From an uncultured bacterium (lineage in GTDB: Bacteria > Chloroflexota > UBA5177 > JANWHV01), in NCBI GenBank assembly GCA_963827235.1, contig CAWHAE010000014.1, positions 256,001-320,000 on the forward strand: a DNA stretch of 64,000 nt, read 5' to 3'. Both the position numbers and the translations under genes were made by a program. The notes below the pieces were generated by a model. It was not told the origin of the DNA. It made no database searches and worked only from the letters and a program-made list of their open reading frames with translations. Shown here piece by piece: positions 9,134-45,865 of the stretch (position 1 is the stretch's first letter; every line of letters starts with the position of its first letter).

Positions 9134-9194
9134 TTGACATGAGATGCCCACCGCCCCAGACTCATAAGCGCACATTGATTAAATGTGTCTTTAT
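9134..9194 (+). promoter_or_regulatory. ino1 promoter with double ArsR-type operator
   Basis: TTGACA-N17-CAGACT then ATAAG-N6-TTGAT/TTAAA-N6-TTTAT; near-identical copy at 45805-45865. Confidence 0.8.
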
Positions 9195-9310
9195 GCATTC
9201 GGACTGCCGGGCCTGCCGGTGGGCCGGTCCAATGAGCTGAGGGCCACCGACGCCCCGCCTATCAGGCCATCTCGCTCGACCGGCTTGGCGCACGGCACGG
9301 CAGCCCGCAT

Positions 9311-10432
9311 ATGATCGGAAAGGGATTCGTCGTGGGCAAGGTCAGGGTAGCCATCGTCGGGGTTGGGAACTGCTCCTCCGCGCTTATCCAGGGAGTGTAC
9401 TACTACCGAGACGCGAAGGAAGGCGACTTCGTGCCCGGACTGATGCACGTGAATCTTGGCGGCTACCATGTTCGTGACATCGAGTTCGTGGCCGCGTTCG
9501 ACGTCGACTCGCGCAAAGTGGGCAAGGACCTGTCGCAAGCCATGTTCGCCGAGCCCAACAACACAATCAAGTTCTCGGACGTGCCGCACCTCGGCGTGCC
9601 GGTTCAGCGGGGCATGACACACGATGGTCTGGGGAAGTACCTCTCGGAGATCATCACCGAGTCTGCCGAACCGGTTGCCGACGTGAAGTCGATCCTCCGT
9701 CAGGCAAAGTGCGACGTCGTGATCAACTACCTGCCGGTGGGCAGCGAAGTAGCCACAAGGTGGTACGTCGGCCAGGTGCTCGAAGCCGGCTGCGCCCTGG
9801 TCAACTGCATTCCCGTGTTCATCGCCAGCGAGGACAGATGGCAGCGTCGCTTCGTGGAGAAGGGCCTGCCGATCGTGGGAGACGACATCAAGTCGCAGGT
9901 CGGGGCCACCATCACGCATCGGATGCTCGTCCATCTCTTCCGCGAGCGGGGTGTGCGGCTCGAGCGTACCAGCCAGCTCAACGTGGGCGGGAACACCGAC
10001 TTCCTCAACATGCTGGAGAGAGAGCGCCTCGAGTCGAAGAAGATCTCCAAGACCAACGCGGTGACGAGCCAGCTCGATTATGAAATCGACAAGTCGAACG
10101 TGCATATCGGTCCCAGCGACTACGTGCCGTGGCTGACCGACCGCAAATGGGCCTACGTGCGCTGCGAAGGCCGCACGTTCGGCGACGTACCGCTCAACGT
10201 GGAGATGAAGCTCGAGGTATGGGACTCGCCCAACTCGGCCGGGGTCGTGATCGATGCAGTGCGCTGCGCCAAGCTCGCTCTGGACCGCGGCACAGCCGGC
10301 ACCCTCGGCGGACCGTCCGCGTTCTTCATGAAGTCGCCGCCCGTGCAGTATGCCGACGACGTGGCATACGGCATGGTGGAGGACTTCGTTGGCGGCAGAG
10401 TAGGCCGCGAGGCCGCCGGAGCGGTGGCGTAG
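9311..10432 (+). CDS. ino1: myo-inositol-1(3)-phosphate synthase (start may be GTG 9332)
   Basis: [46 protein letters not shown]. Confidence 0.96.
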
Positions 10433-10593
10433 CGAGTACCCGGGCCATGGCGAGGAGATGGAGAACAGGGACTCCGACCGAGATCTAGCGACAGCTGCGG
10501 GGACAACAGCCTCAGCCGCGCCTCACGGCAGGAGCGCGGTACGAAGGCATCTGGCTATGGCCGGAGGCCCTCGTACCCCGGTCGCGCTGCTCC

Positions 10594-12108
10594 TCAGCTC
10601 CCGGCCACGCCCGCGATCTGCGCCCTGGCGCGCATCGCGACGAGCCGGCTGTGCAGCTCGTCCCAACTTCCGCCGGTACGCGGCTCGTACCGTTGCACCT
10701 GGGCGGACGCCCGGGCGACTTCACGCGCCTGGGCCATGCCGCGGATCTCGCCGGCGCCCATGGCCTGCACGAGCAGGTTTCCCAACGCGGTCGCCTCGGT
10801 CGGGCCGGCCACCACTCGCCGGCCGGTGGCGTCGGCTGCCAGCTGGCAGAGCAGGCTGTTGCGCGATCCGCCGCCGACGATGTATACGGCCTCCACCGGC
10901 GTATTAGCTAGACGCTCGAGCTGTTGGACGGTAAGTCTGTAGGTGATGGCCAGACTCTCGAGAATAGCCCGCGCAAGCACCTCAGGCGTGTCCACCCGCT
11001 CGCGCTCGGCCGCGTTGAGCTGCACCTTGATCGCCGCTGGCATGTCGTCCGGATGCAGGAACGCCGGGTCGTCGACGTTGATCACCACACGCGGGGAGTC
11101 GACTGCTGCCGCCCGCTCCATCAGCTCCTGGTAGCTCCAGTCGGCCTGAGTCCGGCTGCGCGCCCATGCCCGTCGGGACTCCTGCAGAAGCCACAGTCCC
11201 ATGATGTTCGTGTGGAAACGATACGTGCCGCCGGCGCCTCGCTCGTTGGTGAAGCCCGCCAGCCGGGCCGCTTCGCTGGTGTTCGGGCGCAGCAGCTCCA
11301 TGCCCATCAACGACCAGGTGCCGCTGCTCAGGTAAGCATGTCCATGACCCGAGCTATCCGGATCCGCCGGCACGGCGGCCACGGCGCAGGCCGTGTCGTG
11401 CGTGGGCGGTACGATGACCGGTACCGGACCCAAGCCGCTCTCCTGCCGCGTACCCGGTCGAAGCGTGCCCAGCACCATTCCTGCCGATACCGGTCCGGTC
11501 AGCATGTGAGACGGCACGCCCAGCCGCCCGATCATCTCGCGATCCCACTCGCCGTCAATGCCGAGGGCGCCAGAGGTGCTGCCGTCTGTTTGCTCGCATG
11601 CCTGTTCGCCGCACAGCCAGTAGTGCATCAAGTCCGGCATCATCAACATATTCCGCGCCAGCTCGAGCGTACGGTCACCCGATCGCACGGCAGCCATGAG
11701 CTGGTAGAGCGTGTTGAACTGAAGCTGGGCAATGCCTGTGCGCGCGAACTGCTCGGCAGCGGGCACGATCTTTGCCGCCTCGGCCGGCATGCCGTCCGTC
11801 CGGGCATCGCGGTAGTGGTAGGGATTGCCGAGCAGACGTCCTTCGAAGTCCAGCAGCCCGTAGTCCACGCCCCAGGAATCCACACCGATGCCTGCGACGT
11901 CGCCGGGATGCAGGTCGGCTGCTCGCTTCAGGCCAGCCAGGATCTCACGATAAATGCCCAACGTGTCCCAGTGCAGGCCGTCCGGCGTGCGAACGGGGAC
12001 ATTGGGAAATCGATGGATCTCCTCGAGCTCGAAGAGCTCCCCGTTGAACGCGCCCGCGATGACGCGACCGCTCTCGGCGCCCAAATCGACGGCAAGATAG
12101 CGAGACAC
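10594..12108 (-). CDS. rhaB: Rhamnulokinase
   Basis: LAVDLGAESGR, DSWGVDYG, HDTACAV, SSGTWSL, FTNERG, EATALGN. Confidence 0.93.
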   Translation of the reverse strand: MSRYLAVDLGAESGRVIAGAFNGELFELEEIHRFPNVPVRTPDGLHWDTLGIYREILAGLKRAADLHPGDVAGIGVDSWGVDYGLLDFEGRLLGNPYHYRDARTDGMPAEAAKIVPAAEQFARTGIAQLQFNTLYQLMAAVRSGDRTLELARNMLMMPDLMHYWLCGEQACEQTDGSTSGALGIDGEWDREMIGRLGVPSHMLTGPVSAGMVLGTLRPGTRQESGLGPVPVIVPPTHDTACAVAAVPADPDSSGHGHAYLSSGTWSLMGMELLRPNTSEAARLAGFTNERGAGGTYRFHTNIMGLWLLQESRRAWARSRTQADWSYQELMERAAAVDSPRVVINVDDPAFLHPDDMPAAIKVQLNAAERERVDTPEVLARAILESLAITYRLTVQQLERLANTPVEAVYIVGGGSRNSLLCQLAADATGRRVVAGPTEATALGNLLVQAMGAGEIRGMAQAREVARASAQVQRYEPRTGGSWDELHSRLVAMRARAQIAGVAGS

Positions 12109-12127
12109 GCTACTTTCCTCCCGATCC

Positions 12128-13183
12128 TCAGCCAAAATCTTGTACTGCAGTATAGAGAGCTACAACGTTCTCCGTAGGCGTGTTTGCCTGAATGTGATGG
12201 CACGGGGCAACGATATATCCCTTGCCGCCGCGAAATGCCCGGATGTTCTCAGCCACCTGCTCCCGCACGTCGGACTCACTGCCAAAGGGTAGTGTATGCT
12301 GGTTGTCCATGCCACCGTGAAAGATGAGCTTGTCGCCAAAGTCTCGTGCCAGCCCCTCGCGGTCCATGCCGGCGCATCGCCACTGAATGGGGTTCAGAAT
12401 GTCGACGCCCGCCTCGATAAGGTCGGGGATCATGGGGCGCATAGCACCGTCGTCGTGGTGCATAACGCGCACGCCGTAGGAATGTGCGAGCGCGATCAGC
12501 TTCGCCATGCGCGGTTTGAGAAAGCGCCGGAACAGGCGCGGACTCATGAGCAACGACTGTTGAGTGCCCAGGTCCTCGGCCACGTACATCAAGTCGATGT
12601 GGTCGCCCACCTCGCGCAGAATCCGGCTGAACACCGCGTGGTCGACGGCAAAGATGTGCTCGAGAATGCATTCCGCGATCTCGGGCGACTCGATCAGGTC
12701 CGCCAGTGACCGCTCCATGCCCCGCAGTCGGCAGTAGAGATAGAACGGCTCGCTCGAGCCGCACAGAATCGGATTCTCGGGCCACTCCGCGCACTGATCC
12801 CGCAGTGTGCTGTAATCCCACGTGTCGACCTGGGGCCAGTCGAACGCGTCCACGTCGGCCACCGATTCCGCTCCGGCAAGCGGGTAGTTCACCGCCTCTT
12901 CGTAGACGCCGAGTCCCTCCCCGTAGGAGATCATCTCCGTGCCGATGTGCCAGATCTTGAAGTGGGACTGCATGTGCCAGCCATCCGAGGCTACAGTCGC
13001 ATGTCGCGGCACCAGATGGATGCACTTGTCCACACCGAGCCGCTCATAGAGCTCGCGCTCGCCCGAGCAGCCCAGATCCTTGAGCAGGCGGGCGGTCACT
13101 TCAGCAGTTCCCCAGTAATCGCAAGGCACGCGATCGGGGCGCTCTCCGTCGAAGAGGGCTCGCCAGCGTTGGCGAGGTGTCAT
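12128..13183 (-). CDS. Uroporphyrinogen decarboxylase-like (URO-D/MtaA/CmuA superfamily) protein
   Basis: MTPRQR..PDRVP, LRGME, EDLGTQ, HHDDG, GGMDNQ, APCHHIQ. Confidence 0.85.
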   Translation of the reverse strand: MTPRQRWRALFDGERPDRVPCDYWGTAEVTARLLKDLGCSGERELYERLGVDKCIHLVPRHATVASDGWHMQSHFKIWHIGTEMISYGEGLGVYEEAVNYPLAGAESVADVDAFDWPQVDTWDYSTLRDQCAEWPENPILCGSSEPFYLYCRLRGMERSLADLIESPEIAECILEHIFAVDHAVFSRILREVGDHIDLMYVAEDLGTQQSLLMSPRLFRRFLKPRMAKLIALAHSYGVRVMHHDDGAMRPMIPDLIEAGVDILNPIQWRCAGMDREGLARDFGDKLIFHGGMDNQHTLPFGSESDVREQVAENIRAFRGGKGYIVAPCHHIQANTPTENVVALYTAVQDFG

Positions 13184-13243
13184 CCTCCTACCTCCCTGGA
13201 GTGGACAGGGTGGACGGCCCCGCCGGAGACCGCGGGCACCCGA

Positions 13244-13282
13244 TGCGCGGGCCGGGACAGTCCCGCTGTCCCGGCCCGCGCA
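13244..13282. terminator. Perfect 17-bp inverted repeat after the substrate-binding protein gene (stabiliser or terminator hairpin)
   Basis: TGCGCGGGCCGGGACAG-N5-CTGTCCCGGCCCGCGCA. Confidence 0.65.
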
Positions 13283-13333
13283 GTGCCGAGCGCCACCGGT
13301 CAGGTGCCGAATCGCCCTGCCGGAACACGTGTC

Positions 13334-14347
13334 CTAGAAGTGGAACTTGTCGATGTTGGTCTTGTCAAATACGGTCGGAGGCCCGAGCACGACCACGTTG
13401 TTGGCGCCGATCGTGTACGCACCGAGTCCGGGCACCGTGAACTTCTCGCCCACTTTGCCGGTGATCGTGCCGGCCACGAGGTCATGCGCGACGTATTCAG
13501 CCAGGTAGCCCAGGTTGCCCGGATCCCACAGCGCGAAGGCAGGAACCTGTCCGCCCTTCACATAGCCGCGCATGTCGTTAGGCGTTCCCAGACCGGTGAC
13601 CAGTACTTTACCCGTCTTGCCGGCCACTTTAACCGCTTGAGCTGCCGCGAGGATACCTATCGTGGTCGGCGAGATGATGCCTTTGAGGTTGGGATAGCTG
13701 GTGAGCAGGCCGTTGGCTTCGGTCGTGCTCTTGTTCGGATCATCGTTGCCGTAGGCGATCTTGACCAGCGTCATGTTCTTGTACTTGGGCAGAGCCAGCT
13801 CCTGCTTCATGAAGCCGATCCAGGCGTTCTGATTGGTCGCCGTGGTGGTCGCGCTCAGAATGGCAACCTGACCCGTGTAGTTCAGCAGCTTGCCGATGAT
13901 CTGAACCTCGATGCGGCCAATCTGCTCGGTGTCCGCCTGATTGACGAACACGTTGCGCGCACCGACCGGATCGGAGTCATAGCCGACGACCTTGATCCCC
14001 TTGGCCATTGCCTTTTGCAGAGAGGCCTTGATCGCGCCGGGATCGTTGGCCGAGACGACGATCGCGTCGGCGTGCTCAGTGATGAGCTGGTCTACGTACT
14101 GCGTCTGCGTGGTGGTGCTGCTGGAGGTCGGCCCGACCATCTTCAGAGTGTCGCCGAGCGCCTTGTTGGCGCGAAGGCTGCCGTTATAGGCGGTGGTGAA
14201 GTACGGATTATCGGTCGTCTTCGGCAGCACGAATACCTTGTAGGGTTTCGCCGCGTGAGCGATGTGCATTGCCGCCTGGGGCACGGCCGTTGCGGCCACG
14301 CTGCCAACGAGAACCGCGGCACAGAGAACGCGAGTGTACCGGCGCAT
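13334..14347 (-). CDS. Rhamnose ABC transporter substrate-binding protein (RhaS type)
   Basis: Signal peptide; LPKTTDNPYF, TATNQNAW, GIISPTTIG, ALWDP. Confidence 0.9.
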   Translation of the reverse strand: MRRYTRVLCAAVLVGSVAATAVPQAAMHIAHAAKPYKVFVLPKTTDNPYFTTAYNGSLRANKALGDTLKMVGPTSSSTTTQTQYVDQLITEHADAIVVSANDPGAIKASLQKAMAKGIKVVGYDSDPVGARNVFVNQADTEQIGRIEVQIIGKLLNYTGQVAILSATTTATNQNAWIGFMKQELALPKYKNMTLVKIAYGNDDPNKSTTEANGLLTSYPNLKGIISPTTIGILAAAQAVKVAGKTGKVLVTGLGTPNDMRGYVKGGQVPAFALWDPGNLGYLAEYVAHDLVAGTITGKVGEKFTVPGLGAYTIGANNVVVLGPPTVFDKTNIDKFHF

Positions 14348-14435
14348 ACTACGAATACTCCTTTATTGATGGACGGCGCAAGCACGCATGTGGTGCTTTG
14401 CAATTACATGCACCTTCCCGATTGTAACCTTCCTG

Positions 14436-15524
14436 TCAGTCGCCTCCTTTCATTGCCACCCGGCGCAATCCCAGGCGCTGCGCCACTCTAGGGCCAAGTA
14501 TGGAGAGGATGAGCAGAGCGCCGATGACGATGGTCTGGTCCTGGTCGCCGATATTGGCAAGACCCATACCATTGCGCAGAATGCCGATCAGGAAGAGGGC
14601 GAGGACCGTGCCTCCCATGCTGCCCGAGCCGCCGTTGATGTCGGTGCCGCCCAGCACCACCGCAGTGATCACGTCGAGCTCAAACCCGGTACCCATGTCC
14701 CATCGAGCGCTACCCTGCCGCGACGCGTAGATCAGTCCGGCCATGGCGGCGAACAGGCCGGACACGGTGTAGATCGCTATCTTGATCCTGTCTACCGCGA
14801 TACCGGAATATCGGCACGCGTCCTCATTGTTGCCTATGGCGTATACGAGTCGTCCGAAACTCGTGCGGTGGAGAAGCAGAGCGAACACGATCGCAAGGAC
14901 GATGAAGATCAACAGCGGCCAGGGTACCATGTCGCCGAACGGCAGCAGCGGCTTCACTCCGATGTAGCCCTGGCCCAGATTGTTGAAGCTGTCCGGGAAG
15001 GAGCTGACCGCGCGGTCGCCCAGGATGACCTGGGCCAGGCCGCGATAGAGCGCCATGGTGCCCAGTGTCACCACAAGCGGATGCAGCTTGATGCGCGTCG
15101 TGATTGCGCCGTTGGCGAAGCCCGCCACCAGGCCGATCGCCAGCGCCAGCAAAATGCTCACGCCCAGGTCTCCCGAGGTCGAGTAATGCAGACCGAACGA
15201 GACCCCCGCCAGCGCCATGACCGACGAGATAGAAAGGTCGATGCCTCCCGTGATGATGATCAGGGTCATGGGTAGGGCCATGATGGCTTTCTCCATGAAC
15301 TGGGACGTCATGTCGAAGAGGTTAGACCAATCCAGGAAGTAGGGAGACAGGTAGGTCGACCAAGCCCCGGCGACCACGATCAGCACCACTAACAATACTT
15401 CCCAGCGCATGAGGGTGTGGAGGGCAACTCGACCCAGTGCCGGCCCGTCGCCGGCCGGTGCCTTGTCGTCGGCTGCTGCCGGGGAAGCAGCAACACCGGA
15501 GTCGTGCTGGTGCCGCGCGCTCAT
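14436..15524 (-). CDS. Sugar ABC transporter permease (RhaQ type)
   Basis: GGIDLS, VVTLGTMALYRG, ELDVITAVVLGG. Confidence 0.9.
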   Translation of the reverse strand: MSARHQHDSGVAASPAAADDKAPAGDGPALGRVALHTLMRWEVLLVVLIVVAGAWSTYLSPYFLDWSNLFDMTSQFMEKAIMALPMTLIIITGGIDLSISSVMALAGVSFGLHYSTSGDLGVSILLALAIGLVAGFANGAITTRIKLHPLVVTLGTMALYRGLAQVILGDRAVSSFPDSFNNLGQGYIGVKPLLPFGDMVPWPLLIFIVLAIVFALLLHRTSFGRLVYAIGNNEDACRYSGIAVDRIKIAIYTVSGLFAAMAGLIYASRQGSARWDMGTGFELDVITAVVLGGTDINGGSGSMGGTVLALFLIGILRNGMGLANIGDQDQTIVIGALLILSILGPRVAQRLGLRRVAMKGGD

Positions 15525-18093: not shown

Positions 18094-18216
18094 CTACTCC
18101 TCCAAGAAACGCCGCGGCATCACCCAGCGACCGCTGCCAACACTGCCCATGGGTTCGGTATCGCCGCACGCGTCCCAACGGTCCGCGCCGGCCACGCCCC
18201 AGGACGGAAACCACAG

Positions 18217-18261
18217 GTGAAACGCTGCGAAAACAATAACACTGTTGAGCACTGTCGTCAA
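18217..18261 (-). promoter_or_regulatory. Promoter of the rhamnose ABC operon with a LacI-like box at about +1
   Basis: TTGACG(18261-18256)-N17-TATTGT(18238-18233); GTGAAACGCTGCGA at 18217-18230. Confidence 0.6.
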
Positions 18262-18403
18262 ATTGTCGTCGTATCATGAGCGCTGGTGTGAGTTTTGTTT
18301 CGACACTACTGGTCGAGCCGGGCACGCGGGCAAGCCCGCGCCGGCCTCATTCCCATCCCAACAAGTCGAGCGGCGGCTTCCAGGTCACCGGCAACCTGCT
18401 GAC

Positions 18404-19210
18404 TCAGGCACTCTGAGCGGCATCCGTGGACCTAGCTGCCACACAGGCTAGCCGCACCTCGATGCCTGCTTCCCGCAACTGCTCCACGATCTGGGGATTG
18501 GCCCCGTCGTCGGTTACCAGTACCGAGATTGCCTCCACGGGAGCGAAGACGCTCAACGCCGTGCGCTCGAGCTTGGTGCTGTCGGCAAGCGTCACGACTC
18601 TGGCGGCGTTTCGAACCATGATCTCCTTCAGAGAAGCCTCCGAGACGTTGGCCTCGGTCAGACCGTGATGCAGCGACAACGCTCGCACGGAGATGAACGC
18701 AGTGTCCACGTAGAGACGCCTGAGCGCATTTTCGGCGATCGGCCCGCTGAAAGAGAGAGACGTGTGCCTGAGCGTACCGCCGAGCATGGTAAGTGAGACC
18801 TGCGATCGACGACTGAGCTCGGTGCCTATGGGCAGTGCGTTGACCACCGCGGTGAGCTGGATGCTCGGCGACAGCACACGAGCCAACTCGAGGATCGTGG
18901 TCGACGCATCCATAATCACGGTTGTGCCCGGCTGCACCAGGTCCAGCGCCGCCTCGGCCAGCGCGCGCTTCTGGATCATATGCTCCGACTCACGCGTCAG
19001 AAAGGCACGCTCGCGACCGGACTGGTCGTCCTCTCGCGCCACGGCGCCGCCGTACCGCCGCGTGATCAGACCCTTCTGCTCCAGGTATTGCAGGTCTCGG
19101 CGTACCGTCTGCGGCGACACGGCAAATCGATGTGCCAGCACGTCGACCGTAAGTACCGGGGTCTGCTCCAGCAGCTCCGCGAGAGCCATTCGCCTCTCAA
19201 ACGCCAGCAC
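18404..19210 (-). CDS. DeoR/GlpR transcriptional regulator (RhaR candidate)
   Basis: FAVSPQTVRRDL, RRYGGA, MDASTT, LADSTK. Confidence 0.9.
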   Translation of the reverse strand: MLAFERRMALAELLEQTPVLTVDVLAHRFAVSPQTVRRDLQYLEQKGLITRRYGGAVAREDDQSGRERAFLTRESEHMIQKRALAEAALDLVQPGTTVIMDASTTILELARVLSPSIQLTAVVNALPIGTELSRRSQVSLTMLGGTLRHTSLSFSGPIAENALRRLYVDTAFISVRALSLHHGLTEANVSEASLKEIMVRNAARVVTLADSTKLERTALSVFAPVEAISVLVTDDGANPQIVEQLREAGIEVRLACVAARSTDAAQSA

Positions 19211-23249: not shown

Positions 23250-24083
23250 CTAACGGCCGCAGGAGCCGCTCGTCTCAGCGACGTACACCGCGCAGGGCAC
23301 GCGGCGCAGCTCGTCCAACTCCTCTTGGGGCGCTGCGCAGTCTGTAATCAGGGCGTCTATGCTCTCGATTCCCGTCACGCGGTGCACGGCCACGCGGCCG
23401 AGCTTGCTGCTGTCCGCCAGTACGAGCACGCGATCGGCGCGGCTCAGGATGCTGCGCTTGAGCGCCGCTTCGCCGGCGTGCGCCTCCATCAGCCCGAGCC
23501 GGTGATGGATGGCCCGCGCCGACATCAGCACCGTGTTGACCGCCATATGCCCCAGCATCTCCTCGGCCAGTGGACCTCCAAAGGACCGTGAGGAATGCCG
23601 GAACTCGCCCCCGACGACCATCAGCCGCGCGCCCGGCAGTCGAGATACCTCGACCGCGGCGGGCAATGAGGTCACCACGACGTCGCCCGTCCAGTCGGTC
23701 GGCAGCAGCCCGACCAGCGCCAGTACCGTGGTCGATGCATCGAGGTACAGACTCTCGCCCTGTCGGAGCAGTCCGAGAGCCAGATGCGCGATCGCCGTCT
23801 TCGCGGTTGAGTGCTGGCTCTGCCGCGACAGAAATGCGGGCTCGCTCAGATTCAAGGCGTCGCGCGTCACGGCGCCGCCGTGCGTGCGCCGAACCAATCC
23901 CTTGCGCTCCAAGCGTGCCAGGTCGCGGCGGATCGTTTGCTCGGACACCCCGAACCGCCTCGCCAGATCGTCCAGCGCTACCGCGTCCGTGGCAGCAAGC
24001 AGTGCCGCGACCTGAAGCTGCCGTTGTTCAGGCAGGAGACGCGATTCATCGGCCACCCGCGGCCCTCCGCTCCCGAGGATCAT
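23250..24083 (-). CDS. DeoR/GlpR transcriptional regulator
   Basis: FGVSEQTIRRDL, RTHGGA, LDASTT, LADSSK. Confidence 0.9.
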   Translation of the reverse strand: MILGSGGPRVADESRLLPEQRQLQVAALLAATDAVALDDLARRFGVSEQTIRRDLARLERKGLVRRTHGGAVTRDALNLSEPAFLSRQSQHSTAKTAIAHLALGLLRQGESLYLDASTTVLALVGLLPTDWTGDVVVTSLPAAVEVSRLPGARLMVVGGEFRHSSRSFGGPLAEEMLGHMAVNTVLMSARAIHHRLGLMEAHAGEAALKRSILSRADRVLVLADSSKLGRVAVHRVTGIESIDALITDCAAPQEELDELRRVPCAVYVAETSGSCGR

Positions 24084-24126
24084 GTCATGCTACCGCGCCT
24101 TAGTCAGTCGGCATTATACCAACTTG

Positions 24127-24171
24127 CGACAGGAGTTGACATCAAGTTACGAATTGTTACAGATCTTGACG
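24127..24171. promoter_or_regulatory. Five-unit 10-bp periodic TkACR array upstream of the DeoR gene
   Basis: CGACA/TTGACA/TTACG/TTACA/TTGACG ending at 24131, 24141, 24151, 24161, 24171. Confidence 0.6.
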
Positions 24172-24341
24172 CCCGAAACTCGGCCGCGGCAACCTCCCGG
24201 ACGACAAGGCCCTCCAACCATGCGGCAGATTCTGAAGATGGAGGAGGGACAATGGCTTGCGCACGGCGGGCACGATACTCCGTGCTCGGCGAATGGCACA
24301 GATTGGGATCCTGCGGGTATCCTCTTGACGGGAGGACTGCC

Positions 24342-25628
24342 ATGAACGATGACGCACACGTGGACTCGAACGTACCGGGCAATCCGGCGTATCACTTCGG
24401 GGTGGTGCCTCCCGGGACCGAGGTCTCCGCCGGCTGGAAAGAGCGGACCGCTCTCCTGCACGATGCCCAGGTCGCCACGCAGTGCGTGCACGTGGGCGCC
24501 TTTCCAGACCCCGCGTTCGGCTCAGTCGCCGCACCCATCTATCAGACGTCCACCTTCGCCTTCAACGACCTCTGTACCAACGCTGGATTCGACTACACGC
24601 GCAGCGGCAATCCCACGCGCGCCAGGCTGGAGGACGCCATCACCCGGCTCGAGGGCGGCTCCGGCGCCGCCTGCACCGCCAGCGGCATGGCCGCCGTGCT
24701 GTTGGCGCTCAATCTGCTGGAAGCCGGCAGCCATGTTCTGTGCACGGTGGACTGTTATGGCGGCACCTTCCGCACTCTCGAGCACGGCAGGCTCGCCAAC
24801 AGCCTGTCCGTCGACTACCTCGACCTGGCGGACCCGGCCGCCCTGGCCCGAGCCATGCGCCACGGAACGCGCATGGTGTGGATCGAGACTCCGTCCAACC
24901 CATTGCTCAGGCTGACGGATATCGCCGCGGTGGCACGCGTGGCCCGGCAGTCAGGCGCGCTGGTAGTGGTGGACAATACCTTCCTTGGACCCATCCTGCA
25001 GCGGCCGTTCGAGCTGGGCGCTGACTTGGTCGTGCACAGCACGACCAAGTACCTCAACGGCCACAGCGACGTCGTTGGAGGTGCAGTCGTGGCCGGTCCC
25101 GGGCGCGAGGCGCTGGCCCAGCGCATCGCCTCGCTGAACAATCTGATGGGGACCGGCCAGAGTCCACACGACTGCTTCCTCGTCCTGCGAGGAATCAAGA
25201 CGCTCGCCCTGCGCATGGCCGCTCACGAGGCAAACGCCCAGGCGGTGGCATCGTTCTTGAAGGACCACGCCGCCGTGGCGAAGGTCAACTATCCCGGCCT
25301 GCCGGACCATCCGCAGCATGCGTTGGCAAGTTGCCAGCAAAAGGGATTCGGCGCCATGGTCAGCTTCGAGCTGCTCGACAGCGCACGCGATTCGGTAGAC
25401 AATGTGCTGCGATCGTTGCGTTGGTTCACGCTGGCCGAGAGCCTGGGCGGCGTGGAAAGCCTGGTGTCGCACCCGGCCAGTATGACGCACGCCTCCATGA
25501 CGCCCGCCGCGCGAGCCCGAGCCGGGATCTCGGACGGGCTCATCCGGCTCAGCGTGGGCATCGAAGACCGGCGCGATCTGATCGAGGACCTGAGGCAGGC
25601 CCTGCCAAATCCTTCGGCTTCGCGCTAG
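24342..25628 (+). CDS. metB: Cys/Met metabolism PLP enzyme (cystathionine gamma-synthase/lyase)
   Basis: YTRSGNPT, SGMAA, ETPSNP, VDNTF, STTKYLNGHSD, AESLGGVESL; GGAGG RBS. Confidence 0.85.
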   Translation: MNDDAHVDSNVPGNPAYHFGVVPPGTEVSAGWKERTALLHDAQVATQCVHVGAFPDPAFGSVAAPIYQTSTFAFNDLCTNAGFDYTRSGNPTRARLEDAITRLEGGSGAACTASGMAAVLLALNLLEAGSHVLCTVDCYGGTFRTLEHGRLANSLSVDYLDLADPAALARAMRHGTRMVWIETPSNPLLRLTDIAAVARVARQSGALVVVDNTFLGPILQRPFELGADLVVHSTTKYLNGHSDVVGGAVVAGPGREALAQRIASLNNLMGTGQSPHDCFLVLRGIKTLALRMAAHEANAQAVASFLKDHAAVAKVNYPGLPDHPQHALASCQQKGFGAMVSFELLDSARDSVDNVLRSLRWFTLAESLGGVESLVSHPASMTHASMTPAARARAGISDGLIRLSVGIEDRRDLIEDLRQALPNPSASR

Positions 25629-31906: not shown

Positions 31907-33268
31907 CTACTCTGTGAAATACGTGGCGCCCCATGAGGCCCCGCCTTGGTACGTGGCAGGAAACGTGTTGTAATCCTGGGTCGAGGGACCGTACCAAGGA
32001 TCGTCCAGATCGATGATCGGCACGGCGGGAGTTGAGTTGTCGTACCCAACGATGATGGGATTGTGCCCTCCACCGCCCGTCCAGTAGATGGCTATCGAGA
32101 TCGGGTGGCCGCCATTGATTTCCTGCATCACCGTGGCAAACGATGCCGAGCTCCCTTGTGTCGTGCGCAGGTGCCCGGTAATCGTGAGCGCCCGGTCGGG
32201 GTACCAGGGCTGATTGCATTGCTGCGTCGAGCCGTTCTGGCAGCACGTAGTCTGACTAAAGGCGCGGTTGACGAGCAGGCACTGCGTCCACGTGGACGAA
32301 GGATTGTAGAACAGCGTAACGCTGACCGTCGTGGCCGACCAGCACCATTCCGTCTGCGCCTGATGCTGTTCCGTGAACACGAGCTGCTTCGAGATCTCGG
32401 GCCCATAGAGCCGATAGAGAGGAACGGTGCCCGCGCTGGCGCTCGCGTACACGTCCCCGCAGACACCTTCGTTGCTATATCCCAGATGCTGGACGGCGTT
32501 CTGGAACTCCGCGAGATTGGTGGTGTAGAAGTGGTCGTCGGAGGCACCTTGATAGCCGCGATACAATGGCACCGCGCCGGCCTGCACCTGGGGATAAACG
32601 TAGCAGGCGATACCCTCGCCGGTATAGCCGAGCTTATTCGTGGCGTTGTCTCGCTCCGCCATATTCATGGTGTAGAAGTGCGCTCCGGTTGAAGGATGAT
32701 AGGCTCGGTAGAGCGGCGCGGGCCCCGTGGCCGGCGCCCCGTAGACGTAGCAGGCGATCCCCTCGTCGGCAAAGCCGAGCGTGTGAATTGCGTTCTGCCG
32801 CTCATGCGCATCGGTCGTATAGAAGTGAGTGCTCTTGAAGAGCCTATACAGCGGTAAGGCGCCGCTGACGGTGGCGGCCAAGACGTATCCGCAGATCCCT
32901 TCATAACTGTACCCGAGGTGCTGAACCGCGTTGTTCATCTCCGCGAGATTGGTGGTGTAGAAGTGGTCGTCGCTTGCGCCCCGATATCCGCGGTAGAGCG
33001 GGATAGCGCCCGGATGTTGGGGACCAAAAATGTAGCACGCGATCCCCTCGCCGATATACCGGAGCCTGTTGGTCGCATTATCTCGCTCGGCCATGTTCAT
33101 CGTGTAGAAATGGGCTCCGGTCGCCGGGTGGTAGGCTCGATAGAGCGGCGCCGGTCCCGCGGCGGCCGCTGCGTAGACGTAGCAGGCGACGCCCTCGTCT
33201 TTGAACCCGAGCCGGCTGATCGCATTCAGCCGCTCGCTCGCATCGGTGGTATAGAAGTGTGCCGTCAT
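31907..33268 (-). CDS. Papain-like cysteine protease (C39/C70-like) with two N-terminal DUF5648-like repeat domains
   Basis: Six HFYT..E..G..EG..CYV..PLYR repeats; QAQTEWCWS, GGHNPIIVGYD, DDPWYG triad motifs; GGAGG RBS. Confidence 0.8.
   Translation of the reverse strand: MTAHFYTTDASERLNAISRLGFKDEGVACYVYAAAAAGPAPLYRAYHPATGAHFYTMNMAERDNATNRLRYIGEGIACYIFGPQHPGAIPLYRGYRGASDDHFYTTNLAEMNNAVQHLGYSYEGICGYVLAATVSGALPLYRLFKSTHFYTTDAHERQNAIHTLGFADEGIACYVYGAPATGPAPLYRAYHPSTGAHFYTMNMAERDNATNKLGYTGEGIACYVYPQVQAGAVPLYRGYQGASDDHFYTTNLAEFQNAVQHLGYSNEGVCGDVYASASAGTVPLYRLYGPEISKQLVFTEQHQAQTEWCWSATTVSVTLFYNPSSTWTQCLLVNRAFSQTTCCQNGSTQQCNQPWYPDRALTITGHLRTTQGSSASFATVMQEINGGHPISIAIYWTGGGGHNPIIVGYDNSTPAVPIIDLDDPWYGPSTQDYNTFPATYQGGASWGATYFTE
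32400..33260 (-). repeat. Intragenic tandem duplication, 432-bp period (2 x 3 HFYT repeats)
   Basis: Equivalent His codons at 33259 and 32827. Confidence 0.8.
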
Positions 33269-33682
33269 TGCCTCCTCCTTTGCGTGAACAGCACGTCGAG
33301 ACGCGCCTAGTTGGCACCGTGGTGGCAGAGCTGGGGCCACCGTGGTGCCGCGCGTGGGCCGATGACATGTTGGCGATTCGACCGCGGCTCCCGGGCCCTC
33401 GGCGTCCTGCAAAACGGCCCAGGGAATTGCGACAGTGATTTCAGGTCCGATGAACTGGCTTCCGGCGTCACCGGAAGCTCAAACGCGCCATAATCTGCAG
33501 GGGAGTTGAGATGGCCATCAGATCCAAGCTTCGCGCCGAATGAAGCAAATGCTCTTTGCACGCGACGGATAGGACTCCACACATTGGTCCCATCCGGTGA
33601 CAAACAGCGCAATCGTTGGCGATCGGAACAATCTCTACGTACTCAGCATATACCGGCTGTCAAGCCCGGCAAGCTCCTCTCC

Positions 33683-34640: not shown

Positions 34641-34735
34641 GGTTCCGGCGCCAGATCCCACACGAAATCCCACAGGGAGACAAAGCGAACCCCCTCCGGA
34701 GCCCCCAGACGCGGGAACTCCAGAGGGGGATGGGG

Positions 34736-34808: not shown

Positions 34809-34824
34809 ATTGGCTTGCCCTAGT

Positions 34825-34853
34825 AGTATAGCGAGCCGTTGAGTGCCATGCAA
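34825..34853 (-). promoter_or_regulatory. tRNA promoter
   Basis: TTGCAT-N17-TATACT. Confidence 0.6.
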
Positions 34854-34956
34854 TCTAGGCGAGGCGCTCGGCGCCCGGTATCTGTGCTCCAGCAGGAGGC
34901 GCGACATACTGGTATGTACCGGCCGGCAGCTTCTCTGTACTCGACGCGACCGGCGT

Positions 34957-36888: not shown

Positions 36889-36972
36889 GGTCCAATCCGG
36901 CTGCTACTCGCACGGGGCCCCTCTGGCCACGCAGCGCCACAGTACGATACGCCGCCTGACCTGTCAATGCCG

Positions 36973-38550: not shown

Positions 38551-38623
38551 CTCATTCTACTCGCATACCATACTGAGCCTGTGATCTCGAGGTCGACAAT
38601 GCCTTGGCGAGCCGCCGTACTCC

Positions 38624-39523
38624 TCACGTCGCATCGGTCGACTGGTCGAGCGCGCCGCGCACCAGGCGGGCAATGTCCGGTATGCTGTCGGCTACCGGGA
38701 ACCCGCGTGTACGAAACGCCGCCACCTTCGACTCAGGACCGCCCATACCACCGCTGATGATCGCACCCGCGTGTCCCATGCGCTTGCCTGGGGGCGCGCT
38801 GCGACCCGATATGAAGGTGACGACCGGTTTGCGCACCGCCGGATCGAGACCCTCCAGGTAGGCCGCCGCCTCTTCCTCATCGCTGCCGCCGATCTCGCCG
38901 ATCAATACGACGGCGTCGGTTGCCGGGTCTGCCTGGAACAGGCGCAGAATGTCCACGAAAGTGGATCCGATCACCGGGTCACCACCGATGCCCACGCAGG
39001 TACTCTGGCCCAGTCCCGCGGCGCTGAGCAGATCGCCCACCTCGTAGGTCAGCGTGCCGCTGCGCGAGATCATGCCCACGCGGCCCGGCGAGAACACGTC
39101 GCCCGGCATGATGCCGACCTTAGCGGCACCCGGCGTGATCACTCCCGGGCAGTTGGGGCCAATGAGCCTGGAAGCGGGGAAATCCTGCAGGTAGCGCGCA
39201 ACGCGCACCATGTCGTGTATGGGAATTCCCTCGCTCAGACACACTATCAGGCCGACGCCGGCACTTGCTGCCTCCATGATCGCGTCGCCTGCTCCTGGCG
39301 CGGGCACGAAGATGACAGACGTGTTCGCGCCGGTCGCATCTACCGCCTCCTGAACGGAATCATGCACCGCAACGGCGCCCTGGCGCAGCCCTCCCTTCCC
39401 AGGGGTGACACCTGCTACCACCTGAGTGCCGTAAGCCACCATCTGCGCGGTGTGAAAGGCGCCGTCGCGCCCCGTGATACCCTGCACCACCAACCGCGTG
39501 CCGGCGTCTACAAGAATCGACAT
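38624..39523 (-). CDS. sucD: Succinyl-CoA synthetase alpha subunit
   Basis: [26 protein letters not shown]. Confidence 0.94.
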
Positions 39524-39622
39524 CTGTTCCTCCCGCAATCACGAGCAACCGCGCTTAATAGGATCGGCGCGCGTGGGACAGCTCCTGCGCCGTCAGGGCG
39601 AGAGCTACGATGACACGGCGTC

Positions 39623-41692
<2,070 letters not shown>

Positions 41693-42259
41693 CTAGTTTT
41701 CAGTCACGGTTACCGAGTTGATCACCACTCGCTCGCGAGGCGAAGATCGTTCGGGTCCGCCGACCGGGGTGGCCGCAATCTTGTCGACAACCTCCATGCC
41801 TTGCGTCACCTCACCGAAAATCGTGTAGCTCGGCGGCAGTCGTGTGCCGCTCGGACCCTGCACGATGAAGAACTGGCTCCCGTTAGTGTTCGGTCCCGCG
41901 TTCGCCATCGCCAGCGTGCCGAGCTTGTACGGAGTCACCACCGGCTCATCGTCGAAGCGGTAGCCAGGACCACCCGTCCCGGTGCCCGTCGGGTCGCCAC
42001 CCTGAATCATGAAGCCCTTTATGACGCGATGGAAGATGGCGCCATCATAGAACCCCTGGGTGGCAAGGAATACAAAGTTGTTGACAGTCTTTGGCGCCAC
42101 GTCGCCGAACAGACTGATCGTGATCTCTCCAAAGTTGGTGTCAAGCTTGGCCGTGTAGGTCTTCGTGGCATCCAACGCCATCGCGGGTGCCTGGCCCCAC
42201 TTGTTTCTCCCCTGGGGCCGTTGACCGGCCGTCGAAAACCCCTCGAGCATGGCTCTCAC
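41693..42259 (-). CDS. Cyclophilin-type peptidyl-prolyl isomerase
   Basis: FHRVIKGFMIQGGDP, AMANAG, NGSQFF. Confidence 0.93.
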   Translation of the reverse strand: MRAMLEGFSTAGQRPQGRNKWGQAPAMALDATKTYTAKLDTNFGEITISLFGDVAPKTVNNFVFLATQGFYDGAIFHRVIKGFMIQGGDPTGTGTGGPGYRFDDEPVVTPYKLGTLAMANAGPNTNGSQFFIVQGPSGTRLPPSYTIFGEVTQGMEVVDKIAATPVGGPERSSPRERVVINSVTVTEN

Positions 42260-42397
42260 CCCATTTCACGCATGGACCTTTACCGCTTGCGCCACCTTGG
42301 CGCACAGCGCGAATGGCCGACCGGAGGTGCGGCAGGCCGCTGACCGACCACCTCCCCACCCGTTGTGGAGATTGGCCGCGCAGCAGCCTGCCCGCGC

Positions 42398-43219
42398 TCA
42401 CGACACCTGAATGGTAACCCTGGTAATCTTGACCGGCTTGACCGGCGAGCTGCTCTCGCCCTGCGAGTTCGCCTTGACCGCCGCCTGGGCAATTGTGTTG
42501 ACAACGGCCTGTCCCGCGGTCACATGTCCGAATAGCGAGTAGCTTCGCGGCAGCGCCACGCCCTGAGGCCCCTGGATGATGAAGAACTGGCTGCCGGCAG
42601 TATTGGCTTGACCGGTGTTCGCCATCGCCAGGTCGCCGATCTGATATGCCCTGGGTACTGAATCGTCCTTGATCGTGTAGCCCGGTCCACCGGTGCCCGT
42701 CCCAGTGGGATCACCGCCCTGGATCATGAAACCGGAGATTACCCTGTGGAAGATGATCCCGTTGAAGAAGTCGTGACAGGCCAGGAAGACGAAATTGTTA
42801 GCGGCGACCGGTCCTAGTTTTGGCAGGATGCTTGCCTTGACCAGGCCGTACGTGGTGAAGATATTGGCCACATAGGTCTTGCTTGCATCGATCACCGTCG
42901 AGGGCGCGGCGCCCCACTTCCTGGATCCTTCGGGCTTGTTTCCGGCCTTGGCGAACGGAGCGCAAGCTGAGCTGTTGGCGGCTAGCTCGGCCTTGCTGGG
43001 CACGACGGGGGTACTGATGGCTACCGTGGGCATCGGCGTCGCCGTCTTGGTCGGCGACCGCGGAGGTTGCGTCGGCGCAGGAGTGAATGTGGGCGTGGCG
43101 CCGGGCGCGGCCGTGGTGGTCGGGTTGGTTTCTTGTGCCAGCAGGAAGACGGCGATCACTGTCGCCACCACTGCCACCGCGGCGATGAGTCCGAATATCA
43201 CTGGGAAGGGATCGCGCAC
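42398..43219 (-). CDS. Membrane-anchored cyclophilin-type PPIase (true start possibly 43371 via a 1-bp frameshift)
   Basis: N-terminal transmembrane helix, PT linker, FHRVISGFMIQGGDP. Confidence 0.88.
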   Translation of the reverse strand: MRDPFPVIFGLIAAVAVVATVIAVFLLAQETNPTTTAAPGATPTFTPAPTQPPRSPTKTATPMPTVAISTPVVPSKAELAANSSACAPFAKAGNKPEGSRKWGAAPSTVIDASKTYVANIFTTYGLVKASILPKLGPVAANNFVFLACHDFFNGIIFHRVISGFMIQGGDPTGTGTGGPGYTIKDDSVPRAYQIGDLAMANTGQANTAGSQFFIIQGPQGVALPRSYSLFGHVTAGQAVVNTIAQAAVKANSQGESSSPVKPVKITRVTIQVS

Positions 43220-43669
43220 CGCCGGCCTGCCGCCTGCCGGCCGAGACTTGGCGCGCGCGGTCGGCCCGGCACGCTACCAGCGGCGCGGGGGCCGTCCGGC
43301 GCATCGCCACCGGCGCGAGGGCTGTCCGGTTTTGCGGAGCTGTCAGTGGGGTCGTTCGGTCCGGTACTCATCCGTCAAATCGTCTCCTGCTCATCACACT
43401 CGCCGATCGCTGCCTGTAGGCGCAGGCGCGCAGCCGGTTACACCATACATGCGCGGATTTGAACATGTCAAAAGGTAAGGATACGCGGATTCTTTGACCT
43501 GCACCGAATCTATGTGCTAGCATGCTGCAGTAAACGTCGGACCACCGTGCGGCGGACGTATTTTTGCGCCTCGCGGCGGCGGTGGGCGGAGAGACATTGT
43601 GATGCCGGCCATGCCACGACCGCTGGCTCGTTGGCATCCGGTCATCAGGGGTGGTGGAAGGGTTGTTTG

Positions 43670-43876
43670 ATGCCTAAGCTGAAGACGCATAAGGGAAGTG
43701 CTAAGCGCTTTCAATACAGTGGAAGCGGCAAGGCTATGCTTCCCAAAGCGTGGAAGAACCACAAACGCAGTGCCCGCTCGCGCCGTTCGCGCGCCCTGAT
43801 GGGCCACATGCTGATCGCTCATAAGGGCGATGCCAAGCGGATCCAGAAGCTCATTCCGTATGGGGACCCGCGCTAG
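43670..43876 (+). CDS. rpmI: 50S ribosomal protein L35
   Basis: MPKLKTHKGSAKRF. Confidence 0.93.
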   Translation: MPKLKTHKGSAKRFQYSGSGKAMLPKAWKNHKRSARSRRSRALMGHMLIAHKGDAKRIQKLIPYGDPR

Positions 43877-43903
43877 CGGTACTGCAGCAGGAGAAGTGAG
43901 GAA

Positions 43904-44251
43904 ATGCCTCGAGTGAAGCGTGGCGTGCCGGCGCATAAGCGGCACAAGAAAGTGTTGGCCCTGACCAAGGGTCACTGGGGTGGACGGCACCGGCTCTATC
44001 GCACCGCTCACGAGTCAATGCTGCACGCCCTCGCCTATTCGTACCGCGATCGCCGCAATCGGAAGCGCGACTTCCGCCGCCTGTGGATCCAGCGTATCAA
44101 TGCTGCCGCTAGGCTGCATGGGCTCTCCTATAGTCGCTTCATTGCCGGCTTGATCAGGGCCCACGTGACCATCGACCGGAAGATCCTGGCCGAGCTGGCG
44201 GTCAGCGATCCCAACGCCTTTGCCGAACTCACGAAGATCGCCGGGGCCTGA
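43904..44251 (+). CDS. rplT: 50S ribosomal protein L20
   Basis: [22 protein letters not shown]. Confidence 0.96.
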
Positions 44252-45122
44252 ACGGCCCCACCCGGCGGGTGAGCGCGATACAGCGTCTCGCCCGCCGCAA
44301 CGCGGGAACTGGTCCCGCCCGGACACCGTTACCGACGCGGCAATCCGCACCGCGCGCAGCCTCCGCACGCCACAGGGCCGTCGTCGCCTCGGGCAGTTCT
44401 TGCTCGAAGGGGTGCGTTTGGTTGAGGACGCGTTGTCCAGGGGAGTGAGACCCGAGGCAGTTTTTGTCACGCCCCACCTCCTCGAATCGACCGATCGCGG
44501 ACGCGATCTGGCGCGTGTTGTACGACGGATGGACGTTCCCCTCTTTGAGCTGGCCGAACGTCACCTCGCACTGGTGGCCGACACCGAGGCTCCTGCAGGG
44601 ATCGTAGTAGTCGCCGCCACGCCTCCGGCGCCCGCCGAGCTGCCTGAGGCAAGGGGTCCGGGCCTGGCTGCCGTGGTTCTCGATCAGATTCGCGACCCTG
44701 GCAACATTGGGGGCATCCTGCGAACGACGGCGGCGGCAGGCATCCGGCACATCGTATCCAGCGAGGGCAGCGCGGACCTGTGGGCGCCGAAGGTCGTACG
44801 CGCCGGCGCCGGCGCGCACTTCCGCCTCACGCTCTACCCCGGGCGGCCGGTAGGTGAGATCATCGAGTGGATCGGTACCTGGCGGCAATGCGTGCTTGCC
44901 GACGGTCGCAGCAGGACGACGATCTATCACGTCGACTGGACGCCGCCTACCGTGCTTGTCCTCTCCAACGAGGCGCACGGCGCATCCCGGTGGCTTGACG
45001 ACGTCTCGTTGCTGAGGGCATCCATACCTATGGCCGCGGAGACCGAATCGATCAACGTCGCCGCCGCTTCCGCGGTGTTCGTCTATGAGGCGCGCAGGCA
45101 GCTGCTTGGAAGCAGACACTAA
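44220..45122 (+). CDS. TrmH/SpoU family RNA methyltransferase (start uncertain)
   Basis: [25 protein letters not shown]. Confidence 0.88.
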
Positions 45123-45804
45123 GCGACTAGGCGCTGAACGTTCGTAACTCTTGCAGCGCGATACCTACGAACTTTGACCAGCTACCCGCTTTGCTAGTCA
45201 TGGTTGGTCGGCCCACGCCGCCGACGCACGTGGCTGTATTGGTCCTCGCAGTCGTCTGGTCGAGCCGGTTGTCGTCGATTGCATGCCCCACTTGCGCCGG
45301 GAGGCCTCGCGCACTCGCCAGCTCTCGGCTTCCAGCCGGTGCGTCTCTAGGTCCTGGTTCGAAGCCGCGTTCGTCCCATGCCGGGCGCAATTCCGCTCCG
45401 CCCACATCGTGAATTCTGCGTACCCTACCGCAGAAAAGTACCTCGCATTGCGGCCATGTACTGCCTCAGCAGATTCGAGACCCGGACATTCCGAGCGATC
45501 GGATAGCTGAGGGCAGCGAGCCCGTTCTCGTGGATTCTGCTCTTCACTGCCGCAGGCACGCTTGGCAACGCGTCCATCCGCCGGCGCGCACCCCTGCCAG
45601 ATGACCCGCCAACGCCTACCCTCCTGGCCCTCTCGATGGCGCAGGGCGAATCGCACATGGAGATCGTGGGCGATCCGGCAGCCGGACGAGGCTTGGCTCG
45701 CCGGTGCCAAGCTCTCCGCGATAGCCGCGCTCGTGGCTCTGCTGGTTCAGCAGGATTGTCCGCAGCGTGCGACCACGATCGGAGGTGCGAGAGTGACCAG
45801 GGAC

Positions 45805-45865
45805 TTGACATGGAGCCGGCAAAGTCTCAAACTCATAAGCGAAGATTGATTAAACCGATCTTTAT
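45805..45865 (+). promoter_or_regulatory. Promoter with double ArsR-type operator for the ArsR/PIM-like operon
   Basis: TTGACA-N17-CAAACT then ATAAG-N6-TTGAT/TTAAA-N6-TTTAT; 31/38 bp identical to the ino1 site. Confidence 0.8.

Follow-up and report, generated by a model that had tools for sequence, protein, structure and literature searches.

A matching operator-like element upstream of ino1 and of a distant arsR-headed operon: a candidate inositol-lipid regulon in an uncultured Chloroflexota bacterium

Does a single repressor adjust both the supply of inositol phosphate and its assembly into lipids in an uncultured bacterium of the Chloroflexota? The question is raised by a stretch of 64,000 nucleotides (nt) of contig CAWHAE010000014.1 (assembly GCA_963827235.1, positions 256,001 to 320,000), which is called the window below. 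In the window two promoter regions on the plus strand, 36.7 kb apart, carry a matching AT-rich site of 31 bp. One belongs to ino1, the gene for inositol-3-phosphate synthase, and the other to arsR, which encodes a regulator of the ArsR/SmtB family and heads a set of genes resembling those for the synthesis of phosphatidylinositol (PI) and phosphatidylinositol mannosides (PIM). The explanation that we somewhat favor, based on sequence comparison, is that an autoregulated ArsR repressor would co-control ino1 and the PI/PIM-like operon via this shared operator.

The paired sites and their similarity

The layout of both sites is the same. The motif TTGACATG is present at 9134-9141 (plus strand) upstream of ino1 and at 45805-45812 (plus strand) upstream of arsR, it is followed in both cases by 15 nt and then by a block of 38 nt (9157-9194 and 45828-45865), and the two blocks are identical at 31 of 38 positions. 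The distance between TTGACA and the putative -10 hexamer is 17 nt at both sites. The features are as follows.

9134-9139, plus strand: putative -35 hexamer TTGACA of the ino1 promoter, a perfect consensus match, extended as TTGACATG to 9141
9157-9162, plus strand: putative weak -10 hexamer CAGACT of the ino1 promoter, matching the consensus at 3 of 6 positions
9164-9194: operator-like element at ino1, with box A at 9164-9179 (ATAAG-N6-TTGAT) and box B at 9179-9194 (TTAAA-N6-TTTAT); its 3' end lies 137 nt ahead of the ino1 GTG
45805-45810, plus strand: putative -35 hexamer TTGACA of the presumed arsR promoter, extended as TTGACATG to 45812
45828-45833, plus strand: putative weak -10 hexamer CAAACT of the arsR promoter, 17 nt past TTGACA
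45835-45865: operator-like element at arsR, with box A at 45835-45850 and box B at 45850-45865; its 3' end lies 24 nt ahead of the arsR ATG, which has the Shine-Dalgarno sequence GGAGGG

We infer promoter use and a start site at both genes. The alignment of the two copies revealed seven block mismatches, at 9159, 9171, 9173 and 9184-9187, and six of the seven fall within the N6 stretches of ATAAG-N6-TTGAT and TTAAA-N6-TTTAT. Thus, the first-pass annotation of this DNA was correct in describing two sites with TTGACATG, a 17-nt gap, a -10 box and blocks identical at 31 of 38 positions, which were found at 9134-9194 and 45805-45865, and its claim about the placement of the mismatches agreed with the alignment. 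The GC content of the window is 64.4%, and the 31-bp element is 71% AT. Identity between the copies was 8/8 in the -35 motif, 4/15 in the spacer, 31/38 in the block, 11/30 in the preceding 30 nt and 10/30 in the following 30 nt, so that spacer and flanks are at the random level. This block-wise conservation points to selection acting on the block and its position relative to the -35 motif, and it speaks against a recent duplication.

Several comparisons showed that the pair exceeds chance. A pattern with 27 specified bases, allowing up to three mismatches, matched only these two sites in the window, and none of 100 dinucleotide shuffles yielded two matches. In addition, 40 intergenic regions with a total of 10,380 nt were cut out according to our own gene list, and all 38-mers were compared on both strands. 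The best pair between different intergenic regions was the ino1/arsR pair (31/38); none of 40 within-region shuffles reached this value, the maximum being 29. When the window was compared with itself, a 61-nt pair with 70.5% identity was at the top of the direct matches other than coding paralogy or palindromes. We conclude that the two sites have a genuine motif in common, which is not random.

Another way to account for the similarity would be that it is a coincidence, or was left behind by a duplicated or mobile segment, and is devoid of present function. This view is consistent with there being two copies only, and with the lack of comparative support. However, flanks and spacer are random, yet 27 of 31 positions of the element, 31 of 38 of the block and the register to the -35 motif were kept, and the pair was reproduced in none of the 100 and none of the 40 shuffles. 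The signature of a dispersed repeat or mobile element was not found, as there are two copies in 64 kb and the similarity stops at the flanks (10/30 and 11/30). Further copies with up to three mismatches were absent from the window, and the motif is thus not a window repeat; occurrence at many loci or as a repeat element had been named at the outset as the finding that would speak against a regulon. We regard a relic or a coincidence as highly improbable.

Beyond the window, a collection of 185,579 species genomes was scanned with the exact pattern ATAAG-N6-TTGATTAAA-N5-CTTTAT, which has 20 specified bases. Four loci were retrieved, in Colwellia, Patescibacteria, Bacillota and Acinetobacter, all with a GC content of 34-44%, and the source genome itself, missing from the collection or masked in it, was not returned. 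A tblastn search for homologues of ArsR, Ino1, PIP synthase (phosphatidylinositol phosphate synthase) and the first PatA-like protein near these four loci gave only matches with expectation values (E) of 0.68 and 0.074, and because related genes are lacking there, the four loci are taken to be chance matches. Their location in unrelated AT-rich genomes also speaks against a relic of a mobile segment. The scan shows that the motif is not a widespread repeat; on conservation an exact scan is silent, because a site with one changed base would be missed.

Promoter context of the element

The next point was whether the promoter part itself links the two genes, as the first-pass annotation had proposed. 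The motif TTGACATG has four copies in the window, compared with 1.30 expected, and 3 of 100 shuffles also gave four. The copies lie at 9035-9042 (minus), 9134-9141 (plus), 43464-43471 (minus) and 45805-45812 (plus), all of them intergenic and at promoter-like positions. Plain TTGACA is not enriched in the window (17 matches versus 15.7 expected). The two copies outside the pair read TTGACA-18-TATCCT toward a rhamnose isomerase gene and TTGACA-18-TATGGT toward a gene for a cyclophilin-type isomerase; both have ordinary -10 hexamers and are devoid of the conserved block. The four intergenic copies suggest an extended -35 preference in this organism. As a mark of the regulon TTGACATG was rejected, because two of its four intergenic copies head ordinary promoters that lack the block. 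The proposed promoter link therefore stood in part: the layout of -35 motif, spacing and -10 hexamer is the same at both genes, but TTGACATG is generic.

The same observations bear on the idea that the block is a core promoter or initial transcribed region, being either an alternative-sigma element or an atypical -10 with its discriminator, so that ino1 and arsR would have promoter strength or dependence on a sigma factor in common, independently of a dedicated repressor. The block starts at the putative -10 hexamer, both copies share the non-consensus CAnACT, and the conserved positions are partly asymmetric, all of which would fit this idea. However, AT-rich blocks spaced by about 11 bp carry the conservation to more than 30 bp beyond the -10 hexamer, a length that no core element reaches, and the other two TTGACATG promoters have an ordinary -10 hexamer (TATCCT and TATGGT) and lack the block. 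A pure core-promoter role is improbable.

If the start sites are placed correctly, both messenger RNAs would begin with about 25 nt of the block, which might then act as RNA, namely as a shared 5' leader to which a small RNA, a protein or a ligand binds. The ino1 copy can form a hairpin of -8.9 kcal/mol (z -2.68), and only 1 of 200 shuffles folds as well. In contrast, the arsR copy folds in a different register (z -1.02), with 29 of 200 shuffles being as good, and the different registers mean that no common structure is preserved by compensating differences between the copies. In addition, no Rfam match was found at E <=1 in 9100-9400 or 45123-45950, and at the gathering score one transfer RNA was the only match in the window. 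Based on the differing registers and the missing Rfam match an RNA structure was rejected as the principal explanation, and we consider a role of the block as RNA quite improbable.

The region between ino1 and the divergent rhamnose isomerase gene (rhaI) has further features. It is symmetric, with a perfect 10-nt inverted repeat, formed by GTTGACATGA and its complement at 9034-9043 and 9133-9142, that holds the two facing -35 boxes. Between these boxes a 22-bp unit is present as a tandem direct repeat (9077-9098 and 9099-9120), the two units sharing 73% identity. Elsewhere in the window the pattern of this repeat was not matched, and none of 100 shuffles gave two matches. This tandem repeat may be a site for a regulator of the rhamnose cluster, which could also influence ino1. 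It was rejected as a shared mark of the regulon, as it is present only upstream of the -35 motif of ino1.

The candidate regulator, its operon and ino1

The gene directly behind the second copy of the element is arsR. The identity assigned to it in the first-pass annotation was verified by profile and structure database matches, and the protein is, judged by its sequence, a bona fide member of the ArsR/SmtB family.

45890-46243, plus strand: arsR, encoding a 117-residue ArsR/SmtB-family winged-helix regulator (protein P0001)

The protein passes the family cut-offs of PF01022 (38.1 bits versus 22) and NF033788 (76.2 bits versus 55). In the PDB 21 sequences were matched at E <=0.001, all of them named as ArsR-family proteins, with HlyU as the best match (E 7.2e-9); the closest solved relatives are HlyU, a Rhodococcus ArsR protein and SmtB. 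A single-sequence AlphaFold2 model had a mean pLDDT (predicted local distance difference test) of 64.2, with core blocks of 75-85, and the topology H-E-H-H-E-E-H of a winged helix. The top Foldseek matches of the model were SmtB, HlyU, CzrA and SqrR, with a TM (template modelling) score of about 0.5. The support for the fold is only moderate, because the single-sequence model is of low confidence.

A homodimer model had an ipSAE score of 0.74, compared with 0.00 for the best control; among proteins solved as pairs, 21 of 30 attain the mark applied, compared with 0 of 23 among those solved as single chains. The contacts agreed to at least 92% of the smaller set, the partner pLDDT was at least 87, and the interface comprised residues 4-28 and 74-94. 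The modelling thus supports a homodimer formed via the N- and C-terminal helices, and the score shows likeness to known complexes, because similar complexes have already been solved. By inspection, the only cysteines are residues 38, 58 and 72, none of which is C-terminal, and the last helix is devoid of histidine. Cys38 aligns with a cysteine of Vibrio vulnificus HlyU. According to the available extracts of the literature, persulfide sensing of the HlyU type requires a second, C-terminal cysteine. The ESM Atlas returned generic ArsR clusters, in which the commonest phyla were Actinomycetota, Chloroflexota or Planctomycetota. A tblastn search of a plasmid collection with the ArsR sequence gave 93 records, all below 60% identity and none covering at least 80% of the query, and thus no usable orthologue in that collection.

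Together with arsR, four further genes form a five-gene set on the same strand, with arsR at its head. The set is tightly packed, as in an operon: 86 nt and 37 nt separate the first three genes, the third and fourth overlap in ATGA, and 24 nt separate the fourth from the fifth. A terminator-like site was not found in any of the gaps.

46330-47379, plus strand: PatA-like acyltransferase 1 (PF03279, 138.8 bits; NF005919, 151.7 bits, cut-off 209)
47417-48418, plus strand: PatA-like acyltransferase 2 (PF03279; NF005919, 134.6 bits, cut-off 209); its ATG is preceded by GGAGGAG
48415-49662, plus strand: PimA-like mannosyltransferase of glycosyltransferase family 4; its ATG overlaps the preceding stop codon (ATGA)
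49687-50340, plus strand: PIP-synthase-like CDP-alcohol (cytidine diphosphate-alcohol) phosphatidyltransferase (PF01066)

For both PatA paralogues NF005919 is the best model, with scores under its cut-off, and the best PDB match of the first is the phosphatidylinositol mannoside acyltransferase PatA (E 2.6e-22). The PimA-like protein matched the PimA chains 4n9w and 2gej over residues 1-375 (E 3.3e-69, 236.9 bits), the next family scoring 92.7 bits. The PIP-synthase-like protein reached 131.2 bits with NF045883 (cut-off 170) and 137.6 bits with NF040950 (cut-off 180), and its best PDB match is a mycobacterial CDP-diacylglycerol--inositol 3-phosphatidyltransferase (E 3.4e-21). As the PatA and PIP-synthase proteins missed the NCBIfam equivalog cut-offs, the names hold at the family level, and at this level the earlier assignment of two PatA proteins, PimA and PIP synthase agreed with the profile and PDB matches.

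Two features lie beside arsR. An open reading frame (ORF) of 18 codons (46270-46326), preceded by GAGGAGAAGGG, fills the gap between arsR and the first patA-like gene and stops 3 nt ahead of the ATG of the latter. A coupling or leader peptide may be encoded there, or the ORF may have arisen by chance. On the other side, about 680 bp between a SpoU-type methylase gene and the arsR promoter (45123-45804) are devoid of a convincing gene. The signal of GC content at third codon positions (GC3) is patchy there, for example 0.82-0.85 in one frame around 45260-45320, and two long minus-strand ORFs in 45123-45805 had no Pfam or NCBIfam match. A hidden gene was rejected on these grounds and the region was treated as non-coding; either a decayed gene or a long regulatory region may be present there.

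The gene behind the first copy of the element is ino1, and its identity also proved right.

9332-10432, plus strand: ino1, inositol-3-phosphate synthase, with a GTG start at 9332 and an in-frame ATG at 9311

The protein scored 128.2 bits with PF01658 (cut-off 27) and 556.9 bits with TIGR03450 over the full length of the profile (positions 1-355), which is under the equivalog cut-off of 638. On one side of ino1 an L-rhamnose isomerase gene (TIGR02635, 581 bits) is transcribed divergently, on the other side an FGGY kinase gene convergently, and a regulator gene, as in an InoR-type arrangement, is not among the flanking genes. It sits, in opposite orientation, inside a rhamnose-utilisation cluster with genes for an isomerase, a mutarotase, an FGGY kinase, a sugar ABC (ATP-binding cassette) transporter and a DeoR regulator, and it appears to be an independent transcription unit inserted in this cluster. 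The link to the arsR operon is one of pathway: Ino1 makes the substrate of PIP synthase, and relatives of PimA and PatA act on the product.

The anatomy of the element was compared with operators of the ArsR family, for which extracts of the cited sources were used. The two 16-bp boxes overlap by one T (9179 and 45850), and the half-sites are ATAAG, ATCAA, TTAAA and ATAAA. The boxes start 2 nt past the putative -10 hexamer and would cover the presumed start site. The pattern ATAAA-N6-TTTAT, with up to two mismatches, gave five matches in the window, compared with 1.39 expected; four of them are the boxes, and the fifth, at 14351, lies in a ribosome-binding region. Five matches were reached by 2 of 100 shuffles. 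With ATTGATTAAA alone and up to two mismatches, three matches were found in the window versus 7.05 expected, and no extra sites were added. In the extracts, SqrR has the core ATTC-N8-GAAT in a 22-bp site for one dimer, and the CadC box is ATTCAA-N8-TTGAAT and depends on its 8-bp spacing (bioRxiv 10.64898/2026.05.15.721447, 10.64898/2026.09.30.755606). Helix-turn-helix motifs of ArsR proteins are described in the extracts as placing their recognition helices into successive major grooves.

The element resembles these operators in having short half-sites in a frame of 16-20 bp, in being AT-rich and in lying at promoters, here putative ones, and the 5-N6-5 box of 16 bp has the same frame length as the 4-N8-4 core of SqrR, CadC being 6-N8-6. 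It differs in that the SqrR and CadC sites, as far as the extracts describe them, are clearly two-fold symmetric and bind one dimer, whereas the two boxes here overlap in one base pair, show only weak symmetry each and are made up of other half-sites. The 16-bp frames and the recognition of successive grooves give a geometry that fits two ArsR dimers side by side. As for the earlier proposal that the boxes are ArsR-type operators, the frame length fits solved operators, but the boxes are only weakly palindromic (see below).

In the explanation that we favor, the 31-bp element would be a common transcription-factor operator in two sigma-70-type promoters (TTGACA, 17 nt, CAnACT), spanning about 30 bp from 2 nt past the -10 hexamer across the predicted start site. 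ArsR would bind it, probably as two homodimers, one on each of the adjacent 16-bp boxes, and would repress its own operon (arsR, two patA-like genes, the pimA-like and the PIP-synthase-like gene) as well as the distant ino1. The supply of inositol-3-phosphate and PI/PIM assembly would then be switched together, rising and falling jointly, and some effector would release the repressor. The identity of the binder, the sign of regulation and the release by an effector are steps that we infer. A more specific version, that ArsR is a dedicated inositol-lipid regulator that senses a signal from the inositol pathway or the membrane lipids, rather than metal or persulfide, via the double 16-bp operator, is tentative and rather doubtful.

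Several observations count against the repressor explanation. The symmetry of the half-sites is weak, with 3 of 5 positions in box A and 4 of 5 in box B, and self-complementarity over 31 bp is 22/31 for the ino1 copy and 16/31 for the arsR copy, a modest dyad. Several positions that are conserved between the copies are asymmetric, and a dimer site of simple symmetry would not call for this; such positions may be part of the promoter or make asymmetric contacts. The presence of TTGACATG at two further promoter-like sites makes the shared -35 motif generic and not specific to the pair. A sigma-70 promoter scan called neither the ino1 nor the arsR promoter, because each -10 hexamer matches the consensus at 3 of 6 positions. 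The scan with the exact pattern gave no orthologous promoters, and the evidence consists of the two sites and the gene context. The placement of cysteines and histidines in ArsR is such that no recognised metal or Cys-pair sensing site can be named. Finally, arsR lies directly behind one copy of the site (24 nt), but its position there is no proof that ArsR is the protein that binds.

The last point leads to another regulator, encoded outside the window, that would bind the shared operator, with arsR being merely one of its targets and ArsR having other genes, or none here, under its control. The motif evidence fits any DNA-binding protein, the dyad is weak and conserved positions are asymmetric, and the view covers 64 kb of the genome. 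Against this, a regulator gene immediately behind a site that overlaps its promoter, heading the operon of a pathway, is the usual signature of autoregulation, and the geometry of the boxes fits operators of the ArsR family. The other regulator genes in the window, two of the DeoR type and one of the MarR type, adjoin neither site. We regard an outside regulator as conceivable but unlikely, and autoregulation by ArsR remains the explanation that is used below.

Some further features of the window are unconnected to the two sites. A second gene for a DeoR-type regulator, at 23250-24083 (minus strand; DeoRC 135.6 bits, HTH_DeoR 59.4 bits), is, judged by its DNA (57% over 592 nt), a paralogue of the DeoR gene located at 18404-19210. 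Its presence implies that the 605-residue reading of the ORF for a Cys/Met pyridoxal phosphate enzyme (23811-25628) starts too early; the Pfam match of this ORF begins at residue 222. In the protein encoded at 31907-33412 (minus strand), DUF5648 occurs as three repeats, alongside a papain-like Peptidase_C70 (AvrRpt2-type) domain, and the repeats are visible also in the DNA (74% over 421 nt).

Comparison with known regulators

To our knowledge, little is understood of how PI/PIM synthesis is controlled, even in those Actinobacteria that have been studied in depth. A full-text search revealed no literature joining ArsR, ino1 and phosphatidylinositol, and for ArsR together with pimA or pgsA nothing relevant was among the matches listed. 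The literature that was found on regulation concerns ino1 (IpsA and InoR), not the PI/PIM assembly genes. Judged by the sequence of the two sites, it is plausible that a known family of regulators is linked here to the inositol-lipid pathway, which would be a new pairing.

In mycobacteria the genes for PIP synthase, PatA and PimA are clustered. The gene set described here is similar in that the same three families are found side by side on one strand. Here, the set consists of a regulator, two acyltransferase paralogues, pimA and PIP synthase, and it is headed by the arsR gene. If ArsR is indeed a dedicated inositol-lipid regulator, it would be the first one described as acting directly on the transcription of pimA, patA and PIP-synthase genes. 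A repressor that ties the supply of the precursor to the assembly of the lipids via one operator would be a simple, testable module.

Three published regulators, which are compared on the basis of extracts of the respective papers, are closest to this proposal. The first is IpsA of Corynebacterium and Mycobacterium, a LacI-type regulator that is required for ino1 expression and for the formation of inositol-derived lipids, and that binds palindromic sites and is freed from DNA by myo-inositol (PMC3899939). As proposed here, a dedicated factor ties ino1 to inositol-derived envelope lipids, and sites are present at ino1 and at further targets (PMC3899939). The differences are that IpsA belongs to the LacI family and is required for ino1 expression, whereas the candidate here is of the ArsR/SmtB family and its second target would be a PI/PIM assembly operon; a gene for a LacI-type regulator was not found among the 60 window ORFs scanned. 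In addition, the site described here overlaps the predicted start site, which would be the position of a repressor, unlike the case of IpsA.

The second is InoR of Streptomyces and other actinomycetes. The extracts, which cite Zhang et al. 2012, describe that in Streptomyces inoA generally adjoins its regulator gene inoR, and that the phosphoinositide genes form a separate three-gene cluster (PMC4255298). Again, a pathway-specific regulator acts on the gene for inositol-phosphate synthase, and the lipid genes are located elsewhere (PMC4255298). In contrast to inoR, which lies beside inoA, the candidate regulator gene is found together with the lipid genes, 36.7 kb away from ino1. If ArsR is a dedicated inositol-lipid regulator, it would be a third, independently evolved type of ino1 regulator beside the LacI-type IpsA and InoR.

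The last example is Rv2034, an ArsR-like dimeric autorepressor with a palindromic site and with the same motif at remote promoters (PMC3338718). In the extracts its DNA binding is not inhibited by metal ions, and a role in lipid metabolism is discussed (PMC3338718). Rv2034 is thus a precedent for the proposed ArsR, as it is a non-metal, ArsR-like autorepressor with remote targets. With the proposed ArsR, one more role unconnected to metals would be added to the ArsR/SmtB family. The targets differ, as those described for Rv2034 are phoP and dosR, which it regulates positively, and the extracts mention no connection with inositol or PI/PIM genes (PMC3338718). The comparison is one at the family level.

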